A stretch of 60,815 nucleotides of DNA, filler included. It is 5 parts of 5 records of this genome, joined end to end, with 100 filler letters (N's around TTAATTAATTAA, not from the genome) between each part and the next. Parts side by side here need not be neighbours in the genome. Positions count along the whole stretch, not along the records: positions 1 to 23,166 come from DRR378314_1510; 4 more parts are not named here. One strand, given 5' to 3'. Positions 2,584 to 59,273 of the stretch are shown one piece after another (position 1 is the stretch's first letter; the number at the start of each line of letters is the position of its first letter). A program made the position numbers and the translations under genes. The notes beneath the pieces are model-generated. The model was not told where the DNA came from, ran no database searches, and worked only from the letters and a program-made list of their open reading frames with translations.

Positions 2584-3816
2584 CTAATCGGCGACAGGCT
2601 GCACTAATCCCAAGCTGACTAATTGGCCCAATAACTGGCAGATATCTCGCTTGATACTTTGCCTGCTAGCGCCAACAAAAAAAGCCATCAAGGTATCAAT
2701 AATTTCATCTTGGCATAGAGCCTCATGCTGCAGCAGTGCCCACACAGCTCTACTCGTCACATTCAAACGATGGATTTCGCCGCCCTCTTTAGCAATGACG
2801 AACAGCTCTTCACCCAATGGAAACTCGTGAGCCACCGGGCTGATTTGCCACCTGCGCGTGTCGTTTGCTGCCAGCACCTGGCGCTGTTTGAACGCCTCCG
2901 ACTCAGTTTGACGACGACACGGACTCGTCGCCACAGCACCGTCAAGAAATCCATCGCTATTTATCTCAGTTGCTAGCCACGTTGCCGCTTCGTAAGCATC
3001 TCGGTAACGCATTAAAAAACACGGTAAATCTTTTAAGAGTGGCAAAAAACGCTCAATCAAGGTTTGATCCGACTCATGCTCAGCGAAATTCTGCTGCAAC
3101 AACTGCCATAACCCATCTCCCGGCTGCAGACGAACCAGCTGTGGCTCACTGAGCGATTCATCGCGCTCAATAAGCAGTACGGCGCCTAGCGGACAACGCA
3201 CTCCATGCGATGCCAGCTGCTGCTCGTTTAACGCCAGGTAGCCATAGCGATCATCATGAGGCCCTAGGTGGTTAGCAACAAACTGATGAAACTCCGGCGC
3301 AAGGGTCTCTGGCAACGGCAAGCGCAGTCTAGGTGCAACGCCCAGCGCTATCCCTTCACCACAACTATTGAGTGCCAGCACATCATCGCCAAACACCCGA
3401 TAACCTGCCGCGGCGAACGCCGCCGTGAGCGTACTTTTACCCGCCCGATGACTATCCGGAAATATTACTAGCTGTTGATTAACCTCTACCGCCCCACAGT
3501 GAAGCCCAATATGCTCAGGATGATGTCGAAGATAAGCCCCCGCTAAATCAGCAATCACGCTGCATGCGGTTCCTGCCGGTGTATCTAATAACATGCCTCC
3601 CGGCAGGGCCGGCGCTTCCTGCCAGTAACCATTAGGATGACGCCAAACACAAATAGAGGGTGCGTGCTGCTGAACCTCACAGGGCATTAGCCGCCAGCCT
3701 GGCATGGCTTGATGAATCACTGGCAGTAGCTGCTCTGCATCAATCAAGCGTATGCAAGGGCCAACATTTTCCAGCGCATAATCGACAGCAATCGAAGTGG
3801 TAGACACGGCACCCAC
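2584..3816 (-). CDS. HPr-kinase-like P-loop kinase fused to a C-terminal PqqD-family (RRE) domain
   Basis: LHCGAV...SHRAGKSTL...G.RVFGDD HprK-type signature; the last ~80 aa (EELFVI...HRLNVTSRAVWALL...EIIDTL...DICQLLGQLVSLGLV) have the PqqD pattern. Confidence 0.8.
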   Translation of the reverse strand: MGAVSTTSIAVDYALENVGPCIRLIDAEQLLPVIHQAMPGWRLMPCEVQQHAPSICVWRHPNGYWQEAPALPGGMLLDTPAGTACSVIADLAGAYLRHHPEHIGLHCGAVEVNQQLVIFPDSHRAGKSTLTAAFAAAGYRVFGDDVLALNSCGEGIALGVAPRLRLPLPETLAPEFHQFVANHLGPHDDRYGYLALNEQQLASHGVRCPLGAVLLIERDESLSEPQLVRLQPGDGLWQLLQQNFAEHESDQTLIERFLPLLKDLPCFLMRYRDAYEAATWLATEINSDGFLDGAVATSPCRRQTESEAFKQRQVLAANDTRRWQISPVAHEFPLGEELFVIAKEGGEIHRLNVTSRAVWALLQHEALCQDEIIDTLMAFFVGASRQSIKRDICQLLGQLVSLGLVQPVAD

Positions 3817-3819
3817 CCC

Positions 3820-4161
3820 TTACCAGCGAGGTAATAAGCGGCTTATGCGGATCTCAATCACAGCGTCTCCATCCCAACGGGAGCGCTGTGGGCGAGCGTA
3901 GTAAGGACGTGAATGATGGGGACGTGAATGCCTGGGTTTAGAATAATGGGGTCTTGAATAGCTATGTCTTGAATAACGGGGCCTTGAATAGCTGGGCCGC
4001 GAGTAACGTGAACGGGAATGGTGATGTTCACGCGCTTCAGCTTGCCCCATGGAAAACAGCGTAGGGGCCACGTAAAGTGCAGCGGCACCAAGCCCTAAAC
4101 TTGCTAGCACTTGACGTCGTGAACGCCGTTTATTCAGCAGGGAATCGGCTTCATTGCTCAT
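3820..4161 (-). CDS. Tat-signal small protein with about 10 Ser/Arg/Pro/Tyr/His pentapeptide repeats; putative RiPP-like precursor
   Basis: SRRQVL twin-arginine motif, h-region, AEA cleavage site, GGAG RBS, stop codon 3 nt before the kinase start. Confidence 0.8.
   Translation of the reverse strand: MSNEADSLLNKRRSRRQVLASLGLGAAALYVAPTLFSMGQAEAREHHHSRSRYSRPSYSRPRYSRHSYSRPHYSKPRHSRPHHSRPYYARPQRSRWDGDAVIEIRISRLLPRW
3886..4020 (-). repeat. Degenerate 15-bp coding tandem repeat ([YH]S[RK]Px)
   Basis: HSRSR YSRPS YSRPR YSRHS YSRPH YSKPR HSRPH HSRPY YARPQ. Confidence 0.9.
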
Positions 4162-4308
4162 ATCAGCACTCCGGATTAATCGCTAGAAAGGTTATGAAAC
4201 ACTGTTTTAAAAACAATCCTAGCCTCGAAGCACACAGCAAACCACCGGCTGAGCGTCACTTTCCCATTGTTTACTTTTTTTAACTACACTCAGCGTTTTG
4301 TGGAAACA

Positions 4309-5469
4309 TTATGCAGCTGCAGTAATTTGCCAACCATTACGGCCGGCGCTCTTTACTCGGTAAAGCGCCTTATCAGCAGCTTTATAGGCACTTGGAAAGG
4401 TCGCATCCCCTGCGGTAAAGCATACTGCCCCAATACTCAAGGTGACCCTTTCATTGTGCGGATGCGCGGGGTGTTTGAAATCAGCCTGCTCTAAAACAGA
4501 CGTTAATTGATCACAGTAGCCAATCAATAACGCATCATCATCACAAGGCAATACTGCGGCAAACTCATCCCCGCCTAATCGGTATAGTTTTGCCTCTGCT
4601 CCCAGTACATATTTCAGCAGACTGGCTAAGCGCCGTAACAGTTGATCCCCCTCAGGATGCCCCAGTGAATCGTTGTACTGCTTAAAGAAGTCGATATCGA
4701 CCAAGATCAAAGCAAGCGCAGCCCCTTCTTTGGTAGCGACATCCTGATGCAGCGCACTGCGGTTACCTATCCCCGTCAGCGGATCACGCATCGCATGCTG
4801 CATCCAGGCTATGGTTTGCTTAGTCGCACGCTCTGTACGCCGTAACTGACGCTCATGCATTACCCAAAACAGCAGCCCTAGTGCAAAAATCACCATGCTC
4901 GAATAGGTGAGAATCTGATTATACCGTCGGGTGCTTTCGGAAAACTCATTAATTGCCATACCACGCAAGTCGAGCTGATTCATCTCAATGTTCGTTAAAC
5001 AATCAATTGGGCCCAACAGTTCAGCTGCAGCATCAAACGGTGTCACGGTAGTTTCTGTAAGGCGCTCTGTTAGTAAATTGAGGGTTTGTAAACTCGGCTG
5101 GGTACAGCTGTACCTTTGACGATATACCTCGACATCAATTAGCCCATAGGCAAGATCGAGATTAAGCCTAACCGTTTGTCGCTGTTCATCGTCAAAGGGC
5201 TGTTCGCTTAACAAATGTTGTTGGGCGAGCTGTAAATATGCCCGAGACCTGGTAGCCAATTGCTGCCCTGTCAAATTGCCTGTCTGGCTGAAGTAAGCCT
5301 GTATTTCGGGATATACCCAGCGCGCCTCATAAACAATAACTACCATCAATGCCATAAAACTCATGAGGCTCAATGATAACCACGTTACATAGCGGCGCTT
5401 CCTAGCGAAAGGAACGGGGGGTGGCAGTGGTACGGCAGGTGGAGAAGGCGGCGGCTCAATGATCACCAA
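4309..5469 (-). CDS. Membrane-bound diguanylate cyclase (2 TM, periplasmic domain, GGDEF)
   Basis: DPLTGIGNR, DIDFFKQYND..GH..GD, RLGGDEF, ADKALY..K..GRN. Confidence 0.93.
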   Translation of the reverse strand: MVIIEPPPSPPAVPLPPPVPFARKRRYVTWLSLSLMSFMALMVVIVYEARWVYPEIQAYFSQTGNLTGQQLATRSRAYLQLAQQHLLSEQPFDDEQRQTVRLNLDLAYGLIDVEVYRQRYSCTQPSLQTLNLLTERLTETTVTPFDAAAELLGPIDCLTNIEMNQLDLRGMAINEFSESTRRYNQILTYSSMVIFALGLLFWVMHERQLRRTERATKQTIAWMQHAMRDPLTGIGNRSALHQDVATKEGAALALILVDIDFFKQYNDSLGHPEGDQLLRRLASLLKYVLGAEAKLYRLGGDEFAAVLPCDDDALLIGYCDQLTSVLEQADFKHPAHPHNERVTLSIGAVCFTAGDATFPSAYKAADKALYRVKSAGRNGWQITAAA

Positions 5470-23266: not shown

Positions 23267-23294
23267 CCTTTCGCGGGCTGGGCCCGCTCCCACA
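23267..23294 (-). repeat. GTAG/GTGG-type REP palindrome
   Basis: TGTGGGAGCGGGCCCAGCCCGCGAAAGG on the minus strand. Confidence 0.85.
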
Positions 23295-23315
23295 ATAAGA
23301 GGAAAGGAGGCCTCT

Positions 23316-29582: not shown

Positions 29583-29714
29583 GGGAGTCTTCCCTAAAAA
29601 TTGTGCCCTGAATTCATAACGTTACGGGTAATACCAACCCTCCGGCGAGAGCCCGCCGGGCAAGAGGGTGCGAATTGTACTGAACGCCCCCGGCAAAGAC
29701 AAGCGTAAAGACGC

Positions 29715-29741
29715 CCTTTCGCGGGCTGGGCCCGCTCCCAC
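29715..29741 (-). repeat. REP palindrome (same family as 23267)
   Basis: CCTTTCGCGGGCTGGGCCCGCTCCCAC at the contig end. Confidence 0.85.
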
Positions 29742-29841
29742 NNNNNNNNNNNNNNNNNNNNNNNNNNNNNNNNNNNNNNNNNNNNTTAATTAATTAANNN
29801 NNNNNNNNNNNNNNNNNNNNNNNNNNNNNNNNNNNNNNNNN
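29742..29841. other. Artificial contig-join spacer
   Basis: N44-TTAATTAATTAA-N44. Confidence 0.99.
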
Positions 29842-29866
29842 GGGAGCGGGCCCCGCCCGCGAAAGG
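29842..29866 (+). repeat. REP palindrome variant
   Basis: GGGAGCGGGCCCCGCCCGCGAAAGG at the contig start. Confidence 0.8.
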
Positions 29867-30010
29867 CCGGCTAAGCCGGCCGGCAGGATTCCAGAAACCT
29901 TTTTTACCGCACCCAAAACGAGAGCGCCCCGACCGCGGGAGAACGGTCAGGGCGCACAGGGAGGCACGACACCGCGCGGGCACGCGGCGAGGTGTGTTCG
30001 GGACGGGCCG

Positions 30011-47811: not shown

Positions 47812-48100
47812 AATGCGACACTCTAGGTCCACGGGAATTACCAAGTCAAGCTCGGCGAAACCGGCCAATGTAAAAGAAAGTCTTTGCAAATCAGTTTGTT
47901 AGCTGCGTCACACTGGGGGTGAGCAAGGCGGGGGAAGAGGAGTTGTCAACGTAATCAGGGCGCTGCGGGGCGCAGCTAAGGAATCACTTTAAGAGTTAGA
48001 CTATTTTGGAATAAAGAAGGCGCAATAAATGAAGGGAATGCCATACTCAGGGTGAGTGCTGACTCTCGCCGCAGCCCACTGATGGCGGTAGGGGCGCCTT

Positions 48101-48126
48101 GTAGGAGCGGGCCCAGCCCGCGAAAG
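48101..48126 (+). repeat. GTAG-type REP palindrome
   Basis: GTAGGAGCGGGCCCAGCCCGCGAAAG at the contig end. Confidence 0.85.
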
Positions 48127-57280: not shown

Positions 57281-57357
57281 TGCACTCCGGTGCAGACGCC
57301 TCTGGCGTTTCCTCCCTTTGACCTTGGCCGCGCTTTCGTAGCGCGGCCCTTTTTTTT
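57281..57357 (+). ncRNA. suhB / MmgR (alpha-r8)-like small RNA
   Basis: Short hairpin, UUUCCUCCCU core at 57308-57317, GC-rich terminator with U8; convergent on the N-formylglutamate amidohydrolase gene; 5' end approximate. Confidence 0.75.
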
Positions 57358-57394
57358 GAAAACAAGGTCTTGAGGTTGAAGTGCGTCTGTTGCC

Positions 57395-59198: not shown

Positions 59199-59273
<75 letters not shown>

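Follow-up and report, generated by a model that had tools for sequence, protein, structure and literature searches.

A Conserved Two-Gene Unit of Proteobacteria Pairs a Candidate HprK-like Kinase–RRE Fusion with a Repeat-Rich Peptide Bearing a Twin-Arginine-like Leader

Introduction

What might a small, repeat-rich protein with a signal-like N-terminus and a kinase-like enzyme with a peptide-binding domain do together, when they have no other partner in common? The question is raised by two open reading frames (ORFs) of a non-pathogenic, halophilic Halomonas-type bacterium, which lie head to tail on the minus strand and take up about 1.6 kb in all. They belong to DRR378314_1510, the first of the five parts of the window, i.e., the whole stretch of DNA analyzed (60,815 nt, filler included; all positions refer to it). 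A sequence-only reading had described the pair as a possible new system for a peptide made ribosomally and modified post-translationally (RiPP), in which an HPr-kinase-like enzyme fused to a RiPP recognition element (RRE) modifies a precursor exported by twin-arginine translocation (Tat). As a rule, a RiPP pathway encodes a leader protease and an exporter of its own.

We found that the precursor and the enzyme form a self-contained, strongly conserved two-gene unit. The function that we favor, at somewhat better than even odds (roughly 0.55), is that the RRE holds the signal-like leader, the kinase domain phosphorylates serines of the core, and Tat and signal peptidase I export and trim the product. 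The evidence for each part is presented below, together with the alternatives that it leaves room for.

Results

The Precursor and the Enzyme Recur Together Across Genera

Loci were surveyed in one genome per species, which yielded 64 loci with enzyme relatives at 38–94% identity. The hosts are gamma- and betaproteobacterial and include Vreelandella, Halomonas, Bisbaumannia, Franzmannia, Oceanisphaera, Guyparkeria, Thiopseudomonas, Paenalcaligenes, and other genera. At every one of these loci, a small homologous ORF is located just upstream of the enzyme gene, with intergenic gaps of −1 to 87 nt, mostly 2–17 nt, and the RRE is fused to the C-terminus of the kinase, as it is in the window. The co-occurrence of kinase homologues with repeat peptides carrying an RR leader had been set beforehand as a check on the original idea, and examination of the neighborhoods showed it at 64 of 64 loci.

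When every ORF up to 6 kb to either side of the 64 loci was clustered, only the precursor and the enzyme recurred across genus labels. The enzyme was counted in 57 loci under 11 genus labels, and the tally for the small ORF was 46 loci with 10 labels; a nested-ORF filter makes both numbers too low. ProS, a GGDEF gene, and other neighbors recur only inside the Halomonadaceae. The GGDEF gene and a 170-aa ORF upstream were considered as functional partners and rejected, since they are common only within this family. Of 251 species genomes of the host family, 48 carry the enzyme; by genus, it is present in 4 of 25. The single weak match in 61 genomes around genome G001 gives no prevalence figure; G001 is not kin to this part of the window (its proS is only 70% identical).

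The accessory genes of known RiPP pathways are not part of this unit. A lasso cyclase and a B2 cysteine protease are absent within 16 kb in the window and do not recur in the 64 loci. No radical SAM enzyme or ABC exporter, in keeping with what had been noticed for the window before, and no nucleotidyltransferase was found near the pair in the window or recurring across the 64 loci, and a dedicated exporter or leader peptidase is never linked to the pair (±6 kb, 64 loci).

These data also decide whether the small ORF is a gene at all. Other reading frames are likewise open across its repeat DNA, and the small protein matched no Pfam family at E ≤ 1, so the ORF might be spurious or its position a coincidence of Halomonas synteny. 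We consider this next to impossible. The adjacent homologue is present at all 64 loci, including those of Oceanisphaera, Guyparkeria, Thiopseudomonas, and Paenalcaligenes, which share no other neighbor; the leader is near-invariant, the core varies by in-frame units of five residues, and a good ribosome-binding site (GGAG, 7 nt upstream of the ATG) precedes the gene. The cross-genus clustering and the 64/64 adjacency refute a spurious or coincidental neighbor.

The Leader Carries an RRE-Binding Motif Within a Signal-like Sequence

The N-terminus of the precursor reads KRRSRRQVLASLGLGAAALYVAPTLFSMGQAEA and includes KRRSRRQVL, a Gly/Ala/Leu-rich stretch, and AEA at residues 41–43. Read as motifs, the features of a Tat signal are all present in n-h-c layout: SRRQVL, then LGLGAAALYVAPTLF, then AEA. 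The arginine pair is found in 64 of 64 adjacent precursors, always 14–15 residues ahead of a tyrosine that opens the motif YVAP[TSM][LFM], which is equally universal (YVAPTL exactly in 56). An A-x-A-type end follows 8 residues past the motif in 63 of the 64. Outside its YxxPxL part, the leader consensus is RR...LGLGAAA...FSxGQAxA. According to the main text of PMC13381572, RREs bind the leaders of lasso peptides and of linear polyphosphorylated peptides (LPPs) via [Y/W]xxPx[L/V/I/F/A]. By its sequence, YVAPTL is a canonical RRE-binding leader motif of the lasso/LPP type.

The matching receptor is predicted at the C-terminus of the enzyme. Pfam PqqD (PF05402) matched residues 338–405 with E 1.7e-8 (35.1 bits, against a gathering cut-off of 23.4), which bears out the PqqD-like domain proposed at the outset. 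In a profile search of the PDB, the domain found TbiB1 (E 4e-12), LppB (9x8z_B, E 2e-9), PbaB1 (E 7.3e-8), and TfuB1 (E 2.5e-7); PqqD itself ranked below the lasso B1 proteins and LppB (0.0022). The modeled residues 321–408 superimposed on TbiB1 with Z 12.7 (root-mean-square deviation (rmsd) 1.7, 84/84 aligned) and on TfuB1 with Z 11.5. Profile and model thus agree that the C-terminal domain has the lasso-B1-type PqqD/RRE fold, a winged helix with a three-stranded sheet.

Docking was modeled with enzyme residues 318–410 and precursor residues 8–50, in three runs and three controls. The interface score ipSAE was 0.61 in each run versus 0.01 for the best control; in calibration, 51 of 78 solved complexes reached this mark, as did 2 of 108 mismatched pairs. 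The runs share at least 91% of their contacts, with a partner pLDDT (predicted local distance difference test) of at least 64. The contacts of lowest error join precursor residues 29–36 with enzyme residues 349–358 and 380–395, so that in the model Y30–F36 is docked on the RRE.

The leader therefore appears to double as a RiPP leader and a twin-arginine signal. We propose the Tat route because the arginine pair is invariant and its spacing from the motif is fixed, the A-x-A end is kept, no exporter or peptidase is linked to the pair, and all 3 carrier genomes that were searched contain tatC. Sec export would be hampered by an Arg-rich beginning of the mature part.

The same N-terminus could instead be only a docking sequence for the RRE or a membrane anchor, with the modified peptide staying in the cytoplasm or on the cytoplasmic side of the membrane. 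Hidden Markov models (HMMs) of Tat signals did not match the leader (Pfam at E ≤ 1, NCBIfam); in NCBIfam, it reached only E 0.03 with two unrelated Tat-region families, far below their cut-offs. Positive charge favors a cytoplasmic location by the positive-inside rule, and the cores have a median net charge of +12. Moreover, the leaders of lasso peptides and LPPs do not have to act as signals (PMC13381572, main text). An arginine pair at fixed spacing and an A-x-A end would, however, be superfluous for RRE binding; yet both are kept, also in distant relatives, and no dedicated exporter or leader peptidase accompanies the pair. On balance, we regard retention in the cell as unlikely and prefer the Tat route.

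The Enzyme Resembles a Working HprK-like Phosphotransferase

An AlphaFold2 model of the enzyme, built on 70 relatives, has a mean pLDDT of 92.9 and a predicted template modeling score (pTM) of 0.89, and is uncertain only at the linker around residues 290–320. This model was compared with 48,161 solved chains. Residues 101–299 matched the catalytic domains of HPr kinase/phosphorylase (HprK/P; 3tqf Z 12.2, 1ko7 Z 12.1, 1jb1 Z 11.7, lowest 11.1), and residues 6–350 matched phosphoenolpyruvate carboxykinase (PEPCK; 1ii2_B, Z 14.4, rmsd 4.7, 284 aligned). Foldseek agreed with these matches.

In the 70 sequences, which are 27–76% identical to the window protein, H106, G126, K127, S128, D145, R163, and R165 are invariant, as is W41 of the N-terminal domain. 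The H, GKS, and DD elements of the string LH..V...GKST...DD align with the same motifs of the solved HPr(Ser) kinase 3tqf, which confirms the HPr-kinase-type core seen earlier in the sequence. Given the HprK/P fold match and the invariant H106, GKS, and D145 that align to a solved HprK, the P-loop domain looks like a working phosphotransferase.

A fold of this kind need not mean peptide phosphorylation. HprK/P is bifunctional, and the likeness of the enzyme body to PEPCK is no less than that to HprK; in addition, the modeled docking site is inside the signal peptide, as with Tat chaperones. The enzyme might thus be an NTPase chaperone that binds the signal peptide in the manner of TorD or DmsD, or it might act on another substrate, the peptide being exported unmodified. 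This would leave unexplained the invariant His106 and the Asp145 by the Walker A motif, whose alignment with the catalytic positions of HprK points to phosphotransfer to a hydroxyl. Ser-rich cores were present in every lineage seen, and the nearest characterized RRE-dependent relatives are peptide serine kinases (PMC13381572, main text). We therefore hold a chaperone without kinase activity to be quite improbable and retain the kinase assignment.

The Core Is a Slippage-Prone Array of Ser-Arg-Pro Units

After AEA, the precursor continues with a core of 70 aa that contains 13 Ser (11 with R/K next), 7 Tyr, 8 His, and 8 Pro and has a net charge of +14. The DNA of the array consists of 15/30-nt tandem repeats (3911–4008). 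The 113-aa protein with a twin-arginine-like N-terminus, AEA, and some ten pentapeptide repeats, as first described, is thus supported by the ORF, the tandem repeats, and the enrichment of S[RK]P. In 63 cores, S[RK]P was counted 305 times, compared to a mean of 18.7 and a maximum of 31 in 200 composition-preserving shuffles, and the residue before [RK]P was Ser at 90% of 339 sites. Arg makes up 24.7% of the residues of the cores, followed by Ser with 16.1%, Tyr and Pro with 9.6% each, and His with 8.0%.

Precursor homologues (101 sequences) are 96–178 aa long, and close ones differ in 5-aa steps (108, 113, 118, 123 aa). A contig from the RNA library of run X6 has a 30-nt insertion at window position 3949, equal to two extra pentapeptide units. 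From these length steps and the insertion, it follows that the array changes its length by slippage, as far as sequence comparison can tell. Behind the array, 47 of the 63 cores end in Trp. Across the 64 loci, the tail comes in three flavors: GVIEIRISRLLPRW, DPxxIxEDxxxGPPRR, and xLxISxxPSRW.

It has to be asked whether the array is the substrate or the payload. With the same cassette and the same docking, the kinase might build a short phosphate chain on a single serine, as LppK, SyanK, and PadeK do, for example on the first core Ser 5–9 residues past the cleavage site. In the portions of PMC13381572 and PMC8498205 consulted, the characterized HprK-like RiPP kinases all modify one Ser, often repeatedly. 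Here, the first core Ser is at position 5–9 in 48 of 63 cores, and the cores of distant relatives often begin with S or hold a Ser within five residues. Against a single target, S-R-P is the most conserved core element and recurs as S/T-R-P in distant cores that are otherwise unrelated, which is expected of a repeated recognition site; in the model, the long flexible linker would also let the kinase domain reach along the array. We rate a single-serine mode as a credible minority view, rather improbable as things stand, and continue to favor the serines of the S-R-P units.

Distant Relatives Share the Leader but Not the Core

The wider family is large. We obtained 1,492 cluster representatives of the enzyme at E ≤ 1e-3 and 278 clusters of 50% identity at E ≤ 1e-30, mostly full length (about 400 aa). 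In a phylum sample of 401 genomes, only four had a near-full-length match. In another proteobacterial class, that of one of these four, 36 of 401 genomes had a match at E ≤ 1e-20. The relatives in this class are either fused or split into adjacent or overlapping kinase and PqqD genes (e.g., L069, 1402–2543). Since the two parts are often separate genes there, the kinase–RRE fusion is, to judge from these gene arrangements, one that was formed or broken more than once, or a recent one.

At 13 of 30 loci of that class, an adjacent ORF with a leader of the type RRxxLxRLGL..AYxAPxLL..A-x-A was found within the 1.5-kb flanks. The cores behind these leaders are of low complexity and unlike the core in the window, being Ser/Thr-Arg-Pro, Gly/Ser, or Arg/Gly (SRPSRP, TRPTRP, GSGG, RGRG). 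One locus (L105, 2562–3234, minus strand) has two tandem precursors with near-identical leaders and different Arg/Ser/Gly cores. Leader and enzyme are conserved while the core varies freely, which is the usual RiPP pattern.

A Proposed Mechanism and Its Weight

The observed gene pair, folds, conservation, and motif, together with the modeled docking of leader and RRE, can be combined into the following scheme. The 113-aa product would be a precursor whose residues 1–43 serve as both RiPP leader and twin-arginine signal peptide. In the cytoplasm, the C-terminal RRE of the 407- or 410-aa enzyme would bind YVAPTL, i.e., the hydrophobic core of the signal, and the flexible linker of about 30 residues would tether the P-loop kinase domain to the Arg/Ser/Tyr/Pro repeat core. 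The kinase domain would then phosphorylate core serine, most likely the Ser of the S-R-P units. Release by the RRE would free the signal peptide for TatABC, and signal peptidase I would cut after AEA, so that the repeat peptide, phosphorylated and strongly charged, would end up in the periplasm or cell envelope. We infer the phosphorylation and its sites, the Tat route, the cleavage, and the biological role. A precedent for modification before processing exists: in LPP, the precursor is phosphorylated by the HprK-like kinase LppK together with an RRE, a signal-peptidase-I-type enzyme removes the leader, and the unphosphorylated precursor is poorly cleaved (PMC13381572, main text).

Several observations weigh against this scheme. 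By score, the P-loop domain lies outside every curated kinase family. The HprK-related TIGRFAM search suggested by the sequence-only reading gave a local HprK_rel_A match (NCBIfam; residues 98–160, E 6.6e-11), the score of which (41.8 bits) remained far below the cut-off of 200. None of the Pfam HPr-kinase families matched the enzyme at E ≤ 1, and phmmer with the kinase domain alone found no chain in the PDB; HprK-type matches in a PDB profile search of the enzyme reached only E 0.004–0.05, and a 12-sequence profile of the kinase domain only E 0.2. On the side of the leader, the failure of the Tat-signal HMMs belongs here as well. The docking may partly be memory of solved lasso and LPP complexes; as homologous complexes (TbiB1, LppB) have been solved, it has to be read as likeness to known complexes and not as independent proof.

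Further points of this kind concern the product. Tat delivers to the periplasm only, and neither gene of the cassette provides for passage through the outer membrane. Nor does the model assign a role to the conserved C-terminal tail. That many serines of the array are modified is a guess: the phosphate site is S3, with several phosphates, in LPP (PMC13381572) and the C-terminal Ser in lasso precursors (PMC8498205), each as given in the text consulted. Because characterized relatives load one Ser, and because the C-terminus here is Trp in most cores, the site rule would have to differ from that of the known kinases. Contigs from the RNA libraries of two studies cover both genes (one of 1529 nt corresponds to 2705–4207), but they cannot show transcription, strand, or ends and were therefore not taken as evidence for an operon transcript.

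A wider reading goes further and is, in our view, possible but doubtful. The family might represent a widespread RiPP-like class of Proteobacteria with a Tat signal as leader and the RRE motif built into it. The fused RRE would act as a Tat proofreading chaperone that masks the signal until many S/T-R-P sites are phosphorylated, and housekeeping Tat and signal peptidase would replace a dedicated exporter and protease. Such a class would yield polyampholytes of the envelope, hypervariable and of low complexity, composed of phospho-Ser/Arg/Tyr/Pro. Under this reading, they could serve as a coacervate or adhesive matrix, in mineral nucleation, or as Pro/Arg-rich antimicrobials that are silenced by phosphorylation in the producer.

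Through the RRE motif in its signal peptide, the family appears to hand the jobs of protease and exporter to general Tat and signal peptidase. If true, HprK-like peptide phosphorylation would extend from the lasso and LPP clusters of Bacillota to a minimal two-gene form in many Proteobacteria. The pair would then offer a simple, testable model for the order of modification and export, and it would stand for an unstudied group of exported phosphopeptides that are rich in repeats and have cores evolving through slippage of these repeats.

Organization of the Locus

The coordinates of both genes and their parts are compiled in Table 1. The pair had been described as an operon with a 3-nt gap. Both ORFs are indeed found on the minus strand as described, but the gap is probably 12 nt, because the enzyme homologues in the database are 407 aa long and the GTG at 3807 is preceded by AAGGGG at a better Shine-Dalgarno spacing than the first GTG. 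The genes are tightly coupled either way. A promoter scan at the locus returned 0 sites, and a terminator scan found 3 versus 2.5 expected, none of them at the end of the operon.

Table 1. Features of the gene pair, in window positions; domain and motif assignments are predictions.
Feature	Residues	Positions	Strand	Remarks
Precursor gene	1–113	3820..4161	−	Leader 1–43, core 44–113, stop 3820–3822; supported by ORF, ribosome-binding site, adjacent homologue at 64/64 loci
Leader resembling a twin-arginine signal peptide	1–43	4033..4161	−	RR 4114–4119, hydrophobic stretch, AEA 4033–4041
YVAPTL, predicted RRE-binding motif within the signal hydrophobic core	30–35	4057..4074	−	Conservation, motif match, complex model
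Array of about ten (Y/H)-S-(R/K)-P-x units	48–95	3877..4020	−	Ser of S-R-P as candidate phospho-acceptor
C-terminal tail WDGDAVIEIRISRLLPRW	96–113	3823..3876	−	Conserved in precursor alignment
Kinase–RRE fusion gene	1–410	2584..3816	−	410 aa from GTG 3816; probable start GTG 3807 gives 407 aa
N-terminal alpha/beta domain	1–95	3532..3816	−	Part of PEPCK-like two-domain body
HPr-kinase/phosphorylase-like P-loop domain	96–290	2947..3531	−	Walker A GKST at 3430–3441
Low-confidence linker	291–320	2857..2946	−	pLDDT block means 60 and 53; length varies in alignments
C-terminal PqqD-type RRE	321–410	2587..2856	−	Pfam, PDB profile search, structure

The pair is flanked by a convergent proS (748–2490) and the GGDEF gene (4309–5469); an FKBP-type protein, a major facilitator superfamily transporter, and others are encoded nearby in the window. 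Run X6 stems from an organism in which 594 other letters take the place of the spacer that separates proS from the enzyme gene (2479–2581).

Three further observations concern other parts of the window. A block of about 25 kb (~23267–48114) is 98% identical to one contig of G001, which belongs to another family. It is bounded and interrupted by an element of 55–65 nt (~23267–23295, 29709–29905, 48085–48126) that occurs in dozens of copies across G001. From the sequence, this block represents an island that was transferred recently or else a chimeric contig. A member of the Rfam suhB/mmgR small RNA family is predicted at 57291–57363 (50.7 bits, gathering 41), and a tRNA at 59199–59270.

Comparison with Known Systems

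Besides the LPPs, four known systems resemble the pair in part. The HprK/P of carbon catabolite control has the P-loop catalytic fold (Z 11.1–12.2) and the H, GKS, and DD motifs in common with the enzyme. The latter differs in that it lacks a Pfam HPr-kinase match, has another N-terminal domain, and presumably acts on a repeat peptide and not on HPr. The HPr-rel-A system of NCBIfam (TIGR04352 kinase A plus TIGR04353 PqqD-family chaperone) likewise pairs an HprK-like P-loop protein with a PqqD domain, but as separate proteins. Of the NCBIfam models, only its two reach both halves of the enzyme, with 41.8 versus 200 bits and 19.6 versus 35 bits. With both scores far short of the curated thresholds, the enzyme does not belong to HPr-rel-A, the function of which is, to our knowledge, uncharacterized.

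TorD, DmsD, and NapD are Tat proofreading chaperones that bind twin-arginine signal peptides. By an analogy of mechanism only, the enzyme is predicted to be a cytoplasmic binder of the signal peptide of one dedicated substrate until maturation is completed. Its fold is unrelated, however: the binder is an RRE, and maturation would consist of phosphorylation instead of cofactor insertion.

Phosphorylated lasso peptides of the paeninodin type (PadeK, ThcoK, SyanK; PMC8498205) resemble the pair in having an HPr-kinase homologue that acts on a linear precursor, a YxxPxL leader, and a B1 RRE. Those kinases need a C-terminal Ser and are not reported as RRE-fused in the portion of PMC8498205 consulted, whereas the cores described here mostly end in Trp. 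Since the cyclase (C) and the B2 protease are absent, no lasso is formed.

The closest known system is that of the LPPs (lppA-K-B-S-D-N), linear polyphosphorylated peptides of Bacillota (Popov et al. 2026, PMC13381572; the statements here follow its main text). Both have a linear precursor, a YxxP leader motif, a lasso-B1-type RRE, an HprK-like kinase, and, as proposed here, use of this kinase as the principal modifying enzyme and leader removal by signal peptidase I. LppB is the second-best PDB match of the RRE (E 2e-9). The HprK-like kinase is recognized here by its fold (Z ~12) and the H/GKS/DD motifs, its likeness to LppK being one of description. The earlier view that the pair fits no known RiPP class thus stands for lasso peptides, the tests for which failed, and needs qualification now that LPPs, with an HprK-like kinase, an RRE, and leader removal of the signal-peptidase type, were published in 2026.

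The differences are substantial. LPP clusters have a discrete LppB, whereas the RRE is fused to the kinase here and split forms occur only in distant relatives. They also encode a SipW-like signal peptidase I, an MsbA-like exporter, and a nucleoside triphosphate transferase, none of which is linked to the pair (±6 kb, 64 loci); PF14907 was found in 1 of 5 carrier genomes. Only the YxxPxL part of the LPP leader, YxxPxVLxHQxIxFETxxS, is shared, and here it is part of a Tat-like plan with an A-x-A end. Of the six LPP features open to testing here, four were not found (discrete RRE; linked peptidase, exporter, transferase; extended leader consensus). The core is a Ser-Arg-Pro repeat array, and the hosts are Proteobacteria, whereas LPPs are called restricted to Bacillota in PMC13381572. 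By term, the main text of that paper contains neither Proteobacteria, Pseudomonadota, twin-arginine, nor Tat, and it has no passage on a kinase–RRE fusion; its supplements were outside the scope. In the literature searched, with subscription journals and supplements outside the scope, no description of a kinase–RRE fusion or a Tat-type RiPP leader was found.

By analogy, then, the module is a stripped-down, fused, Tat-leader variant of the LPP logic. What is new here is the RRE-binding motif inside a signal-like leader, the conserved adjacent pair, the distant relatives with the same leader, and the docking model that joins leader and RRE.

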